64,000 nt of DNA from a candidate division WS6 bacterium GW2011_GWF2_39_15. Lineage in GTDB: Bacteria > Patescibacteriota > Dojkabacteria > SC72. How positions within the stretch are numbered: the stretch's first letter is position 1; each line of letters begins with the position of its first letter. Made by a program: the position numbers. This document shows positions 54,001 through 63,000 of this stretch, in pieces. The stretch lies in contig LBWK01000001.1 in NCBI GenBank assembly GCA_000993565.1, forward strand, positions 364,208 to 428,207, given 5' to 3'.

Positions 54001-57000
54001 TTCTTTTCTCATATTCAATCATCTCATTTGGCCCCCAGGATTCAACTAGCTCTTTTGTTACTGGTGTTCCCCTATCCCATTCAAGCAGGAATATTGATTT
54101 AAGGGTTGAACTTAAAGAGATACTATTCATACTTAGTCCCCAATTCTCTTCCCCATTTGCACATGCAATACGTATAACATTTCCTACAATGTTTAGCTCA
54201 ACTGATAGGTTAAATACTGGATTTTCGATATACCTTATCTCTCTGTTTTCAATATACAATGGATTTCTTCCATATTGATAACTAAGGACATGCTTAGTCC
54301 AATCATTTAGAGAGACAATTTCTTTTGACGGATATTTCCTAAGTTTGTATGCCTCATTTTGAGCATCTACTATCCTATTTATCTCTTCATGACCGATCAT
54401 ATCCATCGGCATAAGAAGGTCCCACGTATATCTTTCGGCTTCAATCAGGTCAAAGCTTCTATCTCTGTATAACTTCCTTAATCCTTCAACACCGGGATAG
54501 AACTTAAAGTTCACATTGGCTTTTTCCTTGTGAAAGTCTTGTTTAAGGCTAGGGAGTATATCGACAACATCTAATTCTAGATCCACAAGGTAATTCCTTT
54601 TATCCTGTAGTATCTTTCTTAACACAGAAGGATTATTTGCCTTCACCTTAGTCTGCTGCTTGGTAAAGCCGTCACTCTGTTCCAATTGTACAAGCCCCTT
54701 AAGAGAGAGATTTAGAAGGATGTCATAGATGGTTGTCCGCGGAATTTTCGTAATTTTCGATAGTTGATAAGGAGAAGTGATGTCTTGTTTTAAACATGCT
54801 AAGTATACCTGAATCTCTTTTTCATTAAGGCCGAATCGTTCTAGTGTTCTATATGTTAGTTCCATACTAACCTTCTAGCTTTGTCGACATCGTCCGTCAA
54901 GTTAGACCACCGCGTATACTAGAGGATATAATTACATGATTCCAAATTCGTGTTCACAGAAAAGGAGAAACCATCATGAACACAGCTCTTTTCCAGTTTG
55001 ACCATATGGCGTTCGTACTTAGCAGATCCAACCTGGATCTCGCCGTAAGCTTCTTCAAGGAAGTAATTGATGCTCCTTTAACAAGGGCTGAAGACTTTCA
55101 AAAGGAAGGGTGGGGTTTACGCTTCAACAACCTTGGTTCACACCAAGTCTCGATTCAACAGAATTGGGAAACTGAAGCCGATCAGATTAAACCTCACATT
55201 GGTTTCAAGGTCTCAGACCTTATCCAAGCTTTCAAGACCATTAACGAATGGTGTGACCGGTACAACCAGCCCCACCCTTCCATTGTATGGATGAGCGAGC
55301 ATAAGGATAAGATGATCATCTCGTTAGCATTTTTGCCTTATAATATCGAGATGATGTTAAGCTGATTAAGGGGGAATCAAAAAGAGGGAGACACGTTGTC
55401 TTATGTCATGTGTCTTCCTCTTACAGCTTACTTCTCGCACATAAAAAATATTTCTCTTTCAGACTCTAATCTACTTACTATTTTCAATTGGGATTTCTTT
55501 GCAATCTCTCCAAATATACTAGAATATGAACTCACCATTCCCTTTTCCATTCCCCCTATAGATTTAGTAGGATATGAGACAATCAGATTCTTAAACTTCA
55601 TCTTCTTTATTATATCAACGCTTCCCCCCCGCTCCTGCTGTTCAATCACAGGGAGCAGTTTTAACATCATTACAACATCTGCCTTTGGAAAATCGATAAA
55701 AATATCCCCTACTTCAGCCTTAAAGTTACTTAATTTAAAATGATCAAAGACGACCTTTAAAAACTCAATTTCCTCAACATCTATATCGCTAAAAACCATC
55801 CTCTTGGTGTGAAATCTAGTATCAAGGACAAAAAAGAGAGGATTTAAACCGCACCCAGCATCATAGAAAGACTCTTTATCCCCTGTTTTCTCAAATACCC
55901 AGTCTAAAAACATTTCATAGTCATCTATTCTCTCGTTAGTTGAACTATGTATACGTAATGTATTGATCAAAAAGCTTCTTTTATCAGGACTCTCTAGAAA
56001 GTTCTTGGACAGTTTTCTGAAATCCGGCCTTGAAGAATAGTACGCTCCCCATATCTGATGAAGAAGTGCTCTGGCATTCTCCTCAATATCTTTCTCTTTC
56101 TTATATTTATTCTCCAGGCCATTAACTATTCTCTTTATCACGCCCTCATTTATTCCTTTATACTTTTTGCTCGTATAAATGCGATTAACAATATCAATCA
56201 TCCCCTATTATACATTTTTCTTTATAAACTCCCTAAAGACTAGGATAAAGCCATCAGGATCTCTTATCACAACCTCTCTGGTACCCCATGGATACTCTAC
56301 AGGATCCACTGCTACTTCAAAACTATTGGCTTTACAAATCTCAACTACCTCATCTACGCAATCAACATCTATCATTGCAGATACTTTTGAACTTGTTATA
56401 TCAAGCTTGAAAACCTCAGGTTTAACTGCAACATGTCCATCGGCAATCTCAAATAGAGAATCTCCAACATTAAAAGTTACTCCCCGATACTTTTCGGCCG
56501 CCGTAGAAAGTTTCGAGTCACTCTCTTTTAGCATTCCAAGCCACTTCTCATCTCCATAGGCAAATACAGGTTTAAGATCGAAAGCCCGGTAAAAATTATA
56601 TGACTCTAAAATATCCTTTACTTTTATGTGTATTCCAAAGCGTGTTGATTTCATATGCCCAGTAATGATAACTTATGTATATATTCGAATTATATATCGA
56701 ATACCCTTTTTTAAACTAGTTAATGAGATACGTATATACATATGAAAATCTTCTTTACCTCATCCTTCTACGGCAAAAAGCAGTACCAAAAGTACTATGA
56801 TTTAGTCCTTGATACTATCCTGAAGTTCGAGAAAGATATTATCTCCCCAGAACTGGGGAACTATCTAAAGACAATTAAAGACTCCGAAAAGCGTAAAATC
56901 AGAGATCTTCGAACCATTCACTATCTCGCCGTCAAAAAAGGTATTCAGCAGGCAGATGCAGTGATTATTGAGATCAGCCATCAGGATTTCCAGCTCGGTC

Positions 57001-60000: not shown

Positions 60001-63000
60001 TACAGGATACTCGCTATTGGAGAAAAGGTAATAGGAGTAGTAAAGAGACTCCCAGCCATAGTCACAGGAGACGGAGTATCAACAATTAAACAGCTCATTG
60101 AAAACACGAATGAGCTGAGAAAGACCCGGCTATTAATGCCTATTCCCATAGATGAGGAGACTGTAAAACACCTCACCCACTTAAATCTCTCCCTTGAAAC
60201 AATCCTTGGCAATGGTATAGAAACAACAGTCCGATCCAACACAAACCTCACAACCGGTGGAACAACAGAGGAATGCAGTGAAATAGTTCACCCATTCTAT
60301 AAAGAACTTGCGGTCAAAGCTTTAAAAGCTCTTGACCTTGAATTTGGAGGTGTCGATCTTATTACTAATGATATAACACAACCAACTGAATGTGCTATTA
60401 ATGAGGTAAACTACAACCCCGGACTGAGGCTGCACTACAAAGTAGATAAAGGAGAAGTAAAGAAGGTAGCCGTTCCAATTATGGAATATATAAGAGACAG
60501 ATATCTAGCAATCAAATAGCCCTTTACCCCGCTACTCTTTCAATGTACTATTAACTAGCTAATATAATGCTCAGCTGTTCATGAATGTTCAGGTCCTTCA
60601 GGGAATAAACTTGGAAAACACTATCACCACAATTAAGATCACTACGGACAAAACACCGAGAACCGAACTTGTTGACCTTGTAAAAGACCTTCATCCAGTC
60701 TTTATGGAAGAGTATTCCATAGAAGGCAATACCATAAGTATACAATCCAAGCTCCCCCACTTCTGGAAAGAGACTGCAGTTGCACTAAATAATTTCAGCT
60801 CTAACGAATGGAGCTTTGACCTTGCCAAATCCTATATTCTCGGGACAGTGATCAAAAAACAGATACTATCCATGTCAACCATCCCAATCCTTCATGCTGC
60901 ACATGAGCTAGGTTATGAAACAACTCAGTATTTCATAGAGCAAGGTTTCACTCCTGAAAATGCCGCCTCAAAGTTCAATAGATACTACGGAATAGGAATT
61001 GGACAAGAGTCTGAAGTCACTGCATCGATTGCAAGCAGTCGAGACTCTCATTTAGCAATGATGACGCAAAGTGACAAATGGCTCACTAATATCATGCTGG
61101 ATAGACTCAAATTACCGATAGCTCAATGGGAGCTGATAAATTCGGAGGGTCATCTTAAGGAATTGCACGAAAAATATCGTAAACCATATGTAATAAAACC
61201 CGTGGGTCTAACCGGAGGAAACGGAGTTACTACAAATATTAATACTTTTGATCAAGCACAAGCCGCGTATGAAACCGCCACGAAAGCTATCAACTCAAGA
61301 GAGAGGGCCGAATTTCAAAAGAAGATAATGATTCAACAGACTGTGCAAGGGGAAGATTACAGGCTCCTCGTTATTGCCGGTAGATTAGAGATAGTTACTA
61401 AAAGAATCCCTGCTTTTGTAACGGGAGACGGAGCTCAAACAATTGAAAAACTCATCGCAGAAATAAATAAAGATCCTAGAAGAGACCTTGCCAACCCCAC
61501 CCATATTCTTAAACCTATAATCATAGATGACCAACTAACTACATACTTAAAGGAACAAGGTTTAGATATAAATTACGTCCCTAAAAAAGACGAAAAAATA
61601 TATGTTAGAAAAGTTGCCAGTATGAGCCAGGGGGGAATAACTGAAGACTTTACCGATCGTGTAAGCAATCAGATTAGGTATGTCGTTGAGTCCCTCGCCT
61701 CCTCACTTCATGCATATGCCCTTGGAGTTGATGTTATCTGCAAAGATATTTCCAAACCCCTAACTCAGGAAAACGGTTCTATCATAGAATGTAATACTAT
61801 GCCGGAATCATATCTTAATGCCTTTCCAGTTATAGGAGATCAGTATCCTCAAATCGGAAAAATTGTTGTAAAGGGTCTTGTCGGGAATAAACCATTCACA
61901 AAAAAGATTGTTTATATAGGCAAAGACATTAAAAAGCTCCATGCGTTTTTAAAAACCCAAACCGATGCTAGTGAAAAGACCGGGATTCTTTCTAACGGAT
62001 CTATCTATATTAATGAGGAAGAAATAAATGCAAACCTGGAAACATGGAAAGCTCTAGAAGCTATGAAACTTAATGCCTCACTCTCAACTATCGCAATACA
62101 CTATGAATCAATCGACGAAGTTCGTGAAAGCGGTTTAGGATTCGATCGTATAGATGCTATCCTTATTGATAATAAATACGAAAGTGAAGATTGGACAAGC
62201 AAACTAGAAGGATATAAAAACCTTGGGCTTATTAACACTATTAAGACGGTTTAACTCTCTTTACCCTTTTAAGGGGCTTTGTAAGTTTCAAAAATCCAAA
62301 GACTGCAACTGCAACTCCAATGGTTAAGCCCGCCAGCATAAGAGTTTTCTTAGGCACCTTCCTCCATATATTGACACTTTTTGCAGTTTCAAAGCTCCCC
62401 TCACGCAATCTATCAACCATGTCCAAAACATATGGTCTACCGGGAAAATCAGGTAACGACGTTATCATTCTGTTAATGTTGTCCCACGATGATTTCACAG
62501 TCACTTGATTCTTTTTAACATACTTTTCATATATCTTTAATGTCCTTGCTGAAATAATGCTCCAGTCAAACTCCTCAACTCTTGCCCTAGCATTATCGGA
62601 CAGCCTTATATACTCTTTCTCACTAAGTTTCATCACATTCATTACCGCATCAGCAAATCTTTTAGTTGAAGTCTCTTTTTCGAGTTTCTTCCCCACACTA
62701 TCATCGACAAGCTCATCAATAGTCTCGTTGGAAAGGCCAACAATCGGCCTGCCGGAAGCCATTGCCTCAATAATAGAAAGCGATTGAACTTCAGATTTCG
62801 ATGCCGATACAACCAAATGTGCTTTTTCTATATAAGAAGGAATCATATCTGGGTCAATACCGCCAGTAACTTCTATATTCTTATATTTTTTAACTAGATT
62901 TCTGAAACTCTGCTCATAATCGTCAAAGAAAAACCTTCCTACAAGAATAAGTCTGTAGTTTTTGGGTAGATAATCCATTACCTTTACTAAATATTCCTGG

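Follow-up and report, generated by a model that had tools for sequence, protein, structure and literature searches.

The 64,000-nucleotide stretch of DNA analysed here (the window) comes from the candidate division WS6 bacterium GW2011_GWF2_39_15, which belongs to the class Dojkabacteria within the candidate phyla radiation (CPR). Towards the end of the window lie five closely spaced plus-strand genes, numbered 1 to 5 below, that had been singled out from the sequence alone as an operon for a protein with a ribbon-helix-helix (RHH) fusion, a seven-transmembrane (7TM) protein and three ATP-grasp amide ligases. The actual unit is an operon ancestral to the class Dojkabacteria. It encodes a single membrane protein along with four amide ligases of the ATP-grasp type and two peptidases, a new combination of known kinds of enzymes that is conserved across a CPR class. 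All five open reading frames are present where they had been placed (Table 1), with gaps of 83, -14, 22 and 61 nt, but the unit as first drawn had the wrong borders: gene 1 and a convergent gene for a GT4 glycosyltransferase lie outside it, and genes for a 313-aa RimK-type ligase (RimK313) and a MATCAP/DUF1704 peptidase, found just past the end of the window (13975-16070 of locus L001, our label for the window's own genome, equivalent to window positions 64555-66650), lie inside it. Tentatively, we regard the block as a membrane-associated ATP-grasp assembly line that may make and trim an acidic oligo- or poly-amino acid other than canonical cyanophycin, a reading to which we would give somewhat less than an even chance.

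Loci carrying the block were collected by scanning one genome per species with an alignment of relatives of gene 5 and then mapping the window's proteins onto the loci so obtained; the distances between genes are estimates. The scan yielded 45 further loci (L002-L046) with a gene 5-like protein that is 44-67% identical, making 46 with the window, along with about 33 loci from other phyla that encode full-length CphA1 of roughly 800-940 aa. The recurring order is a 7TM gene, a ligase-retropepsin fusion, a protein with the ATP-grasp (G) domain of cyanophycin synthetase, a protein with N, G and truncated M domains, a RimK-family ligase, a convergent MATCAP/DUF1704 gene and then mreB, and in most genomes the 7TM gene begins 130-550 nt past nusG-rplK-rplA-rplJ-rplL, with mreB beyond the block. 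Packing is tight throughout. The median gap is -14 nt between genes 2 and 3 (at most 150 nt in 32 of 32 loci), 11 nt between genes 3 and 4 (39 of 39), 8 nt between genes 4 and 5 (41 of 45), and 5 nt both between gene 5 and the RimK-type gene (38 of 46) and between the latter and the MATCAP gene (32 of 39). The overlap of the 7TM gene with the first ligase gene, predicted from the window, where the 3' end of gene 2 and gene 3 share 14 nt, is thus also the median arrangement of that pair. A RimK-type gene was found in all 46 loci, median protein identities among block orthologs range from 45 to 58%, and every locus long enough to show them retains all of the modules. Insertions sit at module borders and, in three loci, at the junction of genes 4 and 5; none was seen between genes 2 and 3 or between genes 3 and 4 in the scanned loci. 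In the window's genome, an insertion of the GT4 gene and a hydrolase gene parts the RimK-type and MATCAP genes from gene 5. Recurrence of the five-gene block, which had been proposed as a check, was seen for genes 2 to 5, which together with the RimK-type gene recur in about 45 genomes, but not for gene 1.

The block loci bear the labels Dojkabacteria, Patescibacteria or, in a single assembly project, "uncultured Candidatus Saccharibacteria". The approximately 20 metagenome-assembled genomes with this last label have the same gene order as those labelled Dojkabacteria and an MreB about 75% identical to that of the window, and the label is probably a generic placeholder for Patescibacteria. Among the 120 matches listed in searches with the proteins of genes 3 and 5, only full-length proteins of the Dojkabacteria type were present; one cluster of gene 5 relatives among them is labelled Nomurabacteria. 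Our literature searches found no paper on the Dojkabacteria block, nor any on CphA-like enzymes beyond CphA1 and CphA2, and those on CphA3 or cyanophycin-like enzymes and on the product of the Rlo system (see below) returned nothing beyond the papers cited here.

Genes 4 and 5 encode homologs of the CphA G domain, as had been proposed, and match cyanophycin-synthetase models at about 1e-64 to 1e-67. Gene 4 aligns to positions 166-470 of the 871 positions of PRK14016 (2.3e-64) and gene 5 to CphA positions 186-571 (6e-67); as whole proteins they score 217-218 and 220-226 bits, respectively, against TIGR02068 and PRK14016, for which the cut-offs are 850 and 877. Housekeeping ATP-grasp families are ruled out by far weaker matches (Ddl 1e-7 to 4e-10, GshB 6e-9 or weaker, PurD about 1e-8, as compared to about 1e-64 for CphA). 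The second and third places among the NCBIfam matches fall to the ATP-grasp module of GshAB (1e-50 for gene 4, 1e-42 for gene 5) and to the synthetase of N-acetylglutaminylglutamine amide (NAGGN; 9e-44 and 1e-28), all with scores far under the family cut-offs, and gene 4 is also far under the 331 bits of the equivalog for ligases of ribosomal protein S6 (PRK10446; E 8.6e-5). Neither protein had been thought to possess an M domain. This holds for gene 4, which is a standalone G domain, but gene 5 carries a truncated M remnant without a P-loop. Its AlphaFold2 (AF2) model (63 sequences in the alignment; pLDDT 93.2, pTM 0.90) has as its best Foldseek match the GcCphA2 structure 7ta5 from Gloeothece (E 5e-39, TMq 0.74, TMt 0.70, full length), with CphA1 structures ranking after CphA2, and because the match extends along the whole chain, the protein can be divided into N, G and truncated M domains. 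The chain stops at about residue 601 of an 897-aa CphA1, and the Mur-ligase P-loop GTNGKTT, present in 20 of 20 CphA1 references, occurs in none of 39 gene 5 orthologs. A peptidase site in the N domain, of the Cx19HxxEH type defined for CphA1 (PMC9262961), can likewise be dismissed (HxxEH in 0 of 39 orthologs as compared to 16 of 20 CphA1 references). In a neighbour-joining tree the two proteins form separate deep clades; this, together with an identity of only 26% to one another (28-32% to CphA1 and CphA2), excludes their being recent paralogs. They represent two new CphA-like families, one a minimal G domain of 324 aa and the other a separately arisen scaffold of the CphA2 kind.

The roles of individual residues were taken from structural studies of TeCphA1 and StCphA2 (PMC9427784, PMC10273328) and followed through alignments of 37 gene 4 and 39 gene 5 orthologs. 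None of the ATP-binding, magnesium-binding and catalytic positions (K220, K261, R309, D431, E450 and N452) has been lost, all six being invariant in both sets; the invariant residues are K67, K106, R154, D271, E287 and N289 in gene 4 numbering (37 of 37) and K166, K206, R261, R275, D384, E403 and N405 in gene 5 numbering. Gene 4 also keeps the aspartate-binding R323, N394 and R458 of TeCphA1 (as R168, N234 and R295 in 37 of 37 orthologs). Gene 5 keeps R323 and has S347 for N394, E409 for G456 and Y411 for R458 (38-39 of 39 orthologs); StCphA2, too, has a tyrosine (Y457) at the R458 position. That enzyme takes a dipeptide rather than Asp, and its N393A mutant is dead (PMC10273328). Of the residues on which use of beta-Asp-Arg and cyanophycin depends in StCphA2, given in its numbering, gene 5 retains D362, R389 and S395 but has serine for N393 in 39 of 39 orthologs. 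The acid that binds arginine (E215 in TeCphA1, D212 in StCphA2) is Thr in 34 and Arg in three of the gene 4 orthologs and is variable in gene 5 (K, T, E, N or M), and the P-loop His267, whose change to Ala inactivates SuCphA1 (PMC9262961), is Gly in all 37 gene 4 orthologs and Gly or Ala in 38 of the 39 of gene 5. These patterns point to active ligases of the CphA-G kind that would not be cyanophycin synthetases in the strict sense.

The two families can be set against their nearest characterized counterparts. Like CphA2 (7ta5, 8fxh/8fxi; PMC10273328), gene 5 combines N and G domains with a truncated M domain (TM-scores 0.70-0.74), an intact ATP-grasp set, Tyr at the R458 position and no HxxEH motif; it differs in a G domain that is only about 32% identical, in its separate clade, in being about 75-85 residues shorter, in the lack of a conserved D212, in Ser for N393 and Glu for G455, in the absence of the P-loop His or Lys, and in its pairing with a standalone G-domain protein in a context that is neither cyanobacterial nor linked to cyanophycinase. 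The CphA2 architecture is not shared by gene 4, which resembles instead the G domain of CphA1 (7wac, 7lg5; PMC9427784) in all of the six catalytic residues, G456 and the three aspartate-binding residues. It is about 29% identical to that domain, with H267 replaced by Gly and the primer-Arg-binding E215 by Thr or Arg, and, having neither N nor M domain, it cannot add Arg as CphA1 does. Cyanophycin had been judged unlikely from the missing M domain. The argument was flawed, since CphA2 polymerises beta-Asp-Arg although its truncated M domain is inactive (PMC10273328). Its conclusion nevertheless stays plausible, given that there is no conserved Arg-binding acid, that the P-loop His is absent and that the nucleophile pocket of gene 5 is altered, and the product is probably not canonical cyanophycin.

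Genes 2 and 3 form a module related to rloABC of Pseudomonas aeruginosa, which encodes a retropepsin (RloA), a 7TM protein whose transglutaminase domain is inactive (RloB) and an ATP-grasp protein (RloC), and which has been tied to osmotic-stress tolerance (PMC12239564). Gene 2 has about seven hydrophobic segments and matches PF14402 (2.3e-14, 53.9 bits, cut-off 25), but it aligns only to positions 313-508 of the 508 in the NCBIfam RloB model and thus has no inactive transglutaminase domain. Gene 3 belongs, as predicted, to the 7TM-associated branch related to alpha-L-glutamate ligases (PF14397 ATPgrasp_ST 1e-66, 225 bits, above cut-off; TIGR02291 2.2e-87, 293 bits, slightly under the cut-off of 314). 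It is not, however, the plain RimK-like ligase of the original prediction, in which a C-terminal retropepsin fusion (aa 356-494) was overlooked. This domain matches NF052264 (RloA3) at 3.9e-9 and PF05618 at 2.5e-5 (24.7 bits, under the cut-off of 27), and in its D373-T374-G375 motif the D and T are invariant and the G is kept in at least 90% of 34 orthologs. All of the 120 gene 3 homologs listed are fusions of 480-499 aa with 97-100% query coverage. Against the S6-ligase equivalog PRK10446, gene 3 reaches an E value of 4.7e-4, far under the cut-off of 331 bits.

The view that the block was not a described system must therefore be qualified, for although no paper on it was found, its combination of 7TM protein, ATP-grasp ligase and retropepsin is that of rloABC (PMC12239564). 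The same three families (7TM_transglut, ATPgrasp_ST/TIGR02291-like and D-T-G retropepsin) are linked in both, and both place the gene for the membrane protein next to that for the ligase, probably with co-translation. The differences are considerable. RloA is a separate protein, and the P. aeruginosa retropepsins of the Rlo system are secreted and prefer acidic substrates (PMC12239564), whereas the peptidase of the block is fused to the C-terminus of a cytoplasmic enzyme and for that reason has no signal peptide. The 7TM protein of the block is without the periplasmic transglutaminase domain of RloB, the module is joined to three more ligases and a second peptidase, the scores against all NCBIfam Rlo models are far under the cut-offs, and the host is a CPR bacterium, unlike those of the 96% of RloB hits that are proteobacterial (PMC12239564). 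A second parallel is the RimK-RimB system (PMC11957791, as summarised in PMC12239564), in which S6 is poly-glutamylated and a retropepsin acts as eraser. Gene 3 shares with it a cytoplasmic ATP-grasp domain and a cytoplasmic retropepsin, i.e., a writer/eraser logic for acidic alpha-peptide tails, but the retropepsin-fused ligase of the block is of the ATPgrasp_ST branch rather than RimK, the RimK-type ligase of the block is paired with MATCAP, and neither of these two ligases attains the S6-ligase equivalog score.

RimK313 passes the threshold of PF08443 (1e-11, 45 bits, threshold 21), has conserved ATP-grasp magnesium ligands and is far under the 331 bits of PRK10446 (E 0.0075). The MATCAP protein (385 aa) matches PF08014 at 8e-33 (114 bits, cut-off 27) and TIGR02421 at 131 bits, under its cut-off of 339, with its HExxH (HEIGTH) and QEGLA-type EEGLA motifs conserved in 33 orthologs.

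The assembly line that we tentatively propose would work by non-ribosomal chain growth, in which a C-terminal carboxylate is activated again and again as an acyl phosphate. An Asp-like residue would come from gene 4, and gene 5, which bears the scaffold, may join or extend larger units in the way that CphA2 handles dipeptides; alpha-linked Glu-like residues would be the task of the RloC-type and RimK-type ligases, a dimeric retropepsin and the MATCAP carboxypeptidase would limit the length of the product or recycle it, and the translationally coupled 7TM protein might anchor the machinery and hand over the product at the envelope. Catalytic residues are retained in each of the four ligases and in the two peptidases, and the tight, same-order operon maintained at 45-58% identity counts in favor of such a reading, as do the family assignments, the placing of the insertions and the CphA2-like architecture of gene 5. 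Acidic products have precedents: RimK is known to make poly-alpha-Glu, and Glu-rich tails are cut by RimB and RloA, both of them retropepsins (PMC12239564). In P. aeruginosa, loss of rloB or rloC suppresses the phenotype of a protease-null strain, which fits a product of the ligase and 7TM protein that needs trimming (PMC12239564). The sequences and the model show conservation, architecture and integrity of the catalytic residues; the identities of the substrates, cooperation between the modules and export are what we infer.

Several considerations weigh against the proposed assembly line. To our knowledge, no component, including those of the Rlo system, has a known product, substrate or primer. 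The peptidases and the ligases all seem to be cytoplasmic, and there is no indication of export by the 7TM protein. Conservation of the neighbourhood does not extend past a single class, and since the flanking nusG-rplL and mreB genes are equally syntenic, linkage is weaker evidence here than conservation across phyla would be. No conserved charged patch was apparent in the gene 5 N domain on inspection of the family consensus; the Gly at the H267 position of genes 4 and 5 means that their chemistry could diverge more than we have assumed; and the multi-module fusion proteins that are related to gene 4 (see below) are only 25-35% identical.

Writer/eraser pairs of ligase and peptidase have precedents in RimK and RimB acting on ribosomal protein S6 and in the TTLL ligases and MATCAP acting on tubulin. 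A doubtful though substantial alternative is accordingly that the ligases write Glu, Asp or other residues onto protein C-termini, and that the retropepsin and MATCAP erase them. In its favor, convergent genes for a RimK-family ligase and a MATCAP-family carboxypeptidase are kept side by side (within 150 nt in 32 of 39 loci), the retropepsin domain is cytoplasmic like RimB and not secreted like RloA, and the block sits, in the majority of genomes, immediately after rplJ-rplL and ahead of mreB; set against these, the C-termini of L10, L7/L12 and MreB are ordinary, with no acidic tails (which removes these proteins as candidate targets), RimK313 and gene 3 are far under the S6-ligase equivalog, no conserved small ORF for a carrier or precursor lies near the block, and the CphA2-type architecture of gene 5 comes from a family known only as polymerases of free polymers. 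A search for rpsF with E. coli S6 (tblastn) found none in the DNA of the window and the block loci. In an elaborate form of this idea, which we consider unlikely, four ATP-grasp writers and two erasers would edit a heteropolymeric tail on a cellular protein, a bacterial "tail code" that could be directed at a ribosomal or cytoskeletal protein from a neighbouring gene, or else at the 7TM protein; if true, it would be a prokaryotic counterpart of the glutamylation/detyrosination code of tubulin in one of the smallest known bacterial genomes. It is also unlikely that the product is a small molecule, i.e., a defined di-, tri- or tetrapeptide serving as an osmolyte, or as a thiol like glutathione, or resembling NAGGN, that the peptidases degrade. 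The ranking of GshAB and NAGGN synthetase as second and third among the NCBIfam matches would suit such a peptide, as would the association of the Rlo system with osmotic stress (PMC12239564) and the lack of the CphA His in the P-loops of genes 4 and 5, but those scores all lie far under the family cut-offs, gene 5 keeps the N domain and M remnant typical of CphA enzymes that handle polymers, an endopeptidase-type retropepsin and a carboxypeptidase would be an odd pair for a short peptide, and the block has no GNAT or gamma-Glu-Cys ligase partner.

That the Rlo-like, CphA-like and RimK/MATCAP pairs are unrelated modules with different substrates, adjacent by inherited synteny only, seems to us quite improbable. 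The equal conservation of the nusG-rplK-rplA-rplJ-rplL and mreB flanks, the confinement of all block loci to one class, the absence of CphA-like genes from Pseudomonas rloABC and that of gene 2 and gene 3 relatives from the CphA1 loci of other phyla are all as mere synteny would have it. Yet the genes are packed in one direction with median gaps of 5-11 nt between modules at 45-58% identity, insertions have been tolerated in several places while all modules are kept wherever the locus is long enough, and one chemistry, ATP-grasp amide ligation together with peptide hydrolysis, runs throughout. Very improbable, in our estimation, is canonical cyanophycin recycling, in which gene 5 would work as a CphA2 and turn beta-Asp-Arg dipeptides back into a polymer that stores nitrogen. 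Its full-length structural match to CphA2 ahead of CphA1, the Tyr that it shares with StCphA2 at the R458 position and the conserved equivalents of D362 and R389 favor this, but the Arg salt-bridging acid is not conserved, N393, the residue whose Ala mutant is dead in StCphA2 (PMC10273328), is invariantly Ser, the P-loop His is gone, the clade is separate and deep at only 32% identity to CphA2, and the block has no M-domain enzyme able to make the isopeptide beta-Asp-Arg.

Relatives of gene 4 elsewhere lend the proposed assembly line some analogy. When gene 4 was used as the query of an exhaustive HMMER search, the matches included many standalone proteins about 320 aa long and also proteins of 660-2,400 aa in which two or three G-type modules stand in tandem; the latter outscore the matches of CphA1 size (about 870 aa). 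These multi-module fusions (e.g., WP_053100545.1 of Thiopseudomonas alkaliphila; also P0363, P0376, P0381, P0385 and P0407, with loci L084-L088) are the closest relatives of gene 4 outside Dojkabacteria and are uncharacterised. They resemble genes 4 and 5 in placing CphA-G-like modules side by side; they differ in having them in one chain, in carrying acylphosphatase, PGA_cap (CapA), Mur-ligase or LPG_synthase_C domains, and in having ATP-binding cassette (ABC)/AprE exporters for neighbours instead of a 7TM_transglut protein. Of the three contexts sampled, two, including that of the cultured T. alkaliphila (L084), have the fusion gene directly after genes of the ABC-transporter and AprE/HlyD types. 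By analogy, paired G-type modules might cooperate on an exported peptide or polymer, although the support from the fusions is weak because of their identities of only 25-35%. In L087, a 68-aa ORF that overlaps the start of the ligase gene could encode a precursor peptide.

Dojkabacteria have genomes of roughly 1 Mb and minimal biosynthesis. Even so, all of them apparently keep about 8 kb for the four amide ligases together with the two peptidases and the membrane partner, and such conservation in a small genome implies that the product is important. If it is a new poly-amino acid, it would join a short list of amino-acid polymers made without the ribosome, which consists of cyanophycin, poly-gamma-Glu and epsilon-poly-Lys. 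Both new CphA-like families are relevant to research on cyanophycin-type polymers, and the block offers a second view of the Rlo system, in which the fusion variant suggests that ligase and protease share one substrate. The multi-module fusions beside exporters, one of them in a cultured Thiopseudomonas, provide a tractable experimental entry.

Table 1. Genes, domains and other features of the block and its surroundings, in window coordinates
Feature	Position	Strand	Basis or remark
Glyoxalase/VOC gene	56208..56654	-	PF00903 2.3e-9; divergent partner of gene 1, outside the block
Gene 1, DNPH1/Rcl-like with C-terminal RHH-like part	56742..57308	+	Outside the block
Promoter-like site TTGAAA-17-TATAAT	57291..57319	+	Gap between genes 1 and 2; 11/12 consensus positions, best match of the region
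Gene 2, 218-aa 7TM protein, RloB-type	57392..58048	+	PF14402 7TM_transglut
Gene 3, 495-aa RloC-type ATP-grasp and retropepsin fusion	58035..59522	+	Profile matches
Gene 3 ATP-grasp domain, aa 10-304	58062..58946	+	ATPgrasp_ST / alpha-L-glutamate ligase-like
Gene 3 retropepsin-like domain, aa 356-494	59100..59516	+	NF052264, PF05618
Gene 4, 324-aa standalone CphA-type G domain	59545..60519	+	PRK14016 match
Gene 5, 557-aa CphA2-like protein with N, G and truncated M domains	60581..62254	+	AF2 model and Foldseek
Gene 5 N domain, about aa 1-105 (boundary approximate)	60581..60895	+	No Cx19HxxEH peptidase motif
Gene 5 G domain, about aa 106-437	60896..61891	+	All catalytic residues kept; changes in the nucleophile pocket
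Gene 5 truncated M-domain remnant, about aa 438-557	61892..62251	+	No Mur-ligase P-loop
GT4 glycosyltransferase, C-terminal transmembrane anchor	62241..63668	-	PF00534 1.4e-21, PF13439 8e-13; not core
Alpha/beta-hydrolase gene, 3' part (274 aa when whole; leaves the window)	63649..64000	-	L001 13069-13893

Gene 1 is a fusion with an RHH-like C-terminus, as predicted (NikA-like RHH, E 0.004), behind a DNPH1-like fold (AF2 pLDDT 87.9; Foldseek match to DNPH1 with TMt about 0.7). Its proposed role as regulator of the block did not survive the comparison, since no ortholog was found in the 45 other block loci, the gene is part of a genome-specific insertion and its partner is the divergent glyoxalase gene. 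Its family (about 185 aa, at least 50% identical, with an invariant D-x-x-x-G-H-E) occurs in several CPR phyla. The divergent pair of glyoxalase (minus strand) and gene 1 (plus strand) recurs in L080-L083; in Parcubacteria it has no ATP-grasp genes nearby, and a related Dojkabacteria genome carries it at another position; the family may be a nucleotide-sensing regulator of the VOC gene. The insertion is confined to this genome, where it puts 3.4 kb between rplL and the 7TM gene (53990-56654 plus gene 1). It comprises genes for a TrmB regulator, a 129-aa VOC protein, an Rmt-family 16S rRNA m7G1405 methyltransferase (NF000466 1e-62, 212 bits, under the cut-off of 250), a glyoxalase/bleomycin-resistance-type protein and gene 1, and has the look of a small island of the resistance type within a CPR genome. 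In L005 (5408-5716) and L046 (97-378), the place of gene 1 directly upstream of the 7TM gene is occupied by a protein of about 100 aa with an N-terminal transmembrane segment and a cytochrome-b5-like HPGG motif.

The promoter-like site in Table 1 is no more than a match to the consensus, with such matches no more numerous across the region than in shuffled sequences, and would be a possible start of the operon. No riboswitch or other known RNA was found near the block, and the search for a LysW-like carrier or precursor peptide came down to frame shadows of rplJ and rplL, which were the only "conserved" small ORFs there. Two kinds of insert were seen between genes 4 and 5. In the two closest relatives of the window (L005 9022-9999, L046 3686-4663) it is a 325-aa autoproteolytic N-terminal nucleophile (Ntn) hydrolase/acyltransferase of the C45 family (NF040521, 1e-43), a third amidase within the operon there that is absent from the window. 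In one Dojkabacteria genome (L019 2615-3379) it is a 254-aa acidic protein with internal repeats, in which a 'AEELTDEQKTAIANRLIDTPTT...' segment occurs twice.

The convergent GT4 glycosyltransferase with its C-terminal hydrophobic anchor is real, but as a partner of the ligases it was not borne out: the insertion of GT4 and alpha/beta-hydrolase genes is confined to a few close relatives, i.e., three of the 46 scanned loci (L001, L005 and L046, the sub-clade of the window) plus L083, which has a 275-aa gene in the position of the hydrolase. Matches of the hydrolase to PF12697 and PF00561 (about 4-6e-5) are under the cut-offs. The 3' end of the GT4 gene, on the opposite strand, runs 14 nt into the end of gene 5, so that a terminator would have no space between the convergent genes. 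Its start is ambiguous: a GTG at 63668 would give 475 aa, and the gene called in L001 encodes 468 aa.

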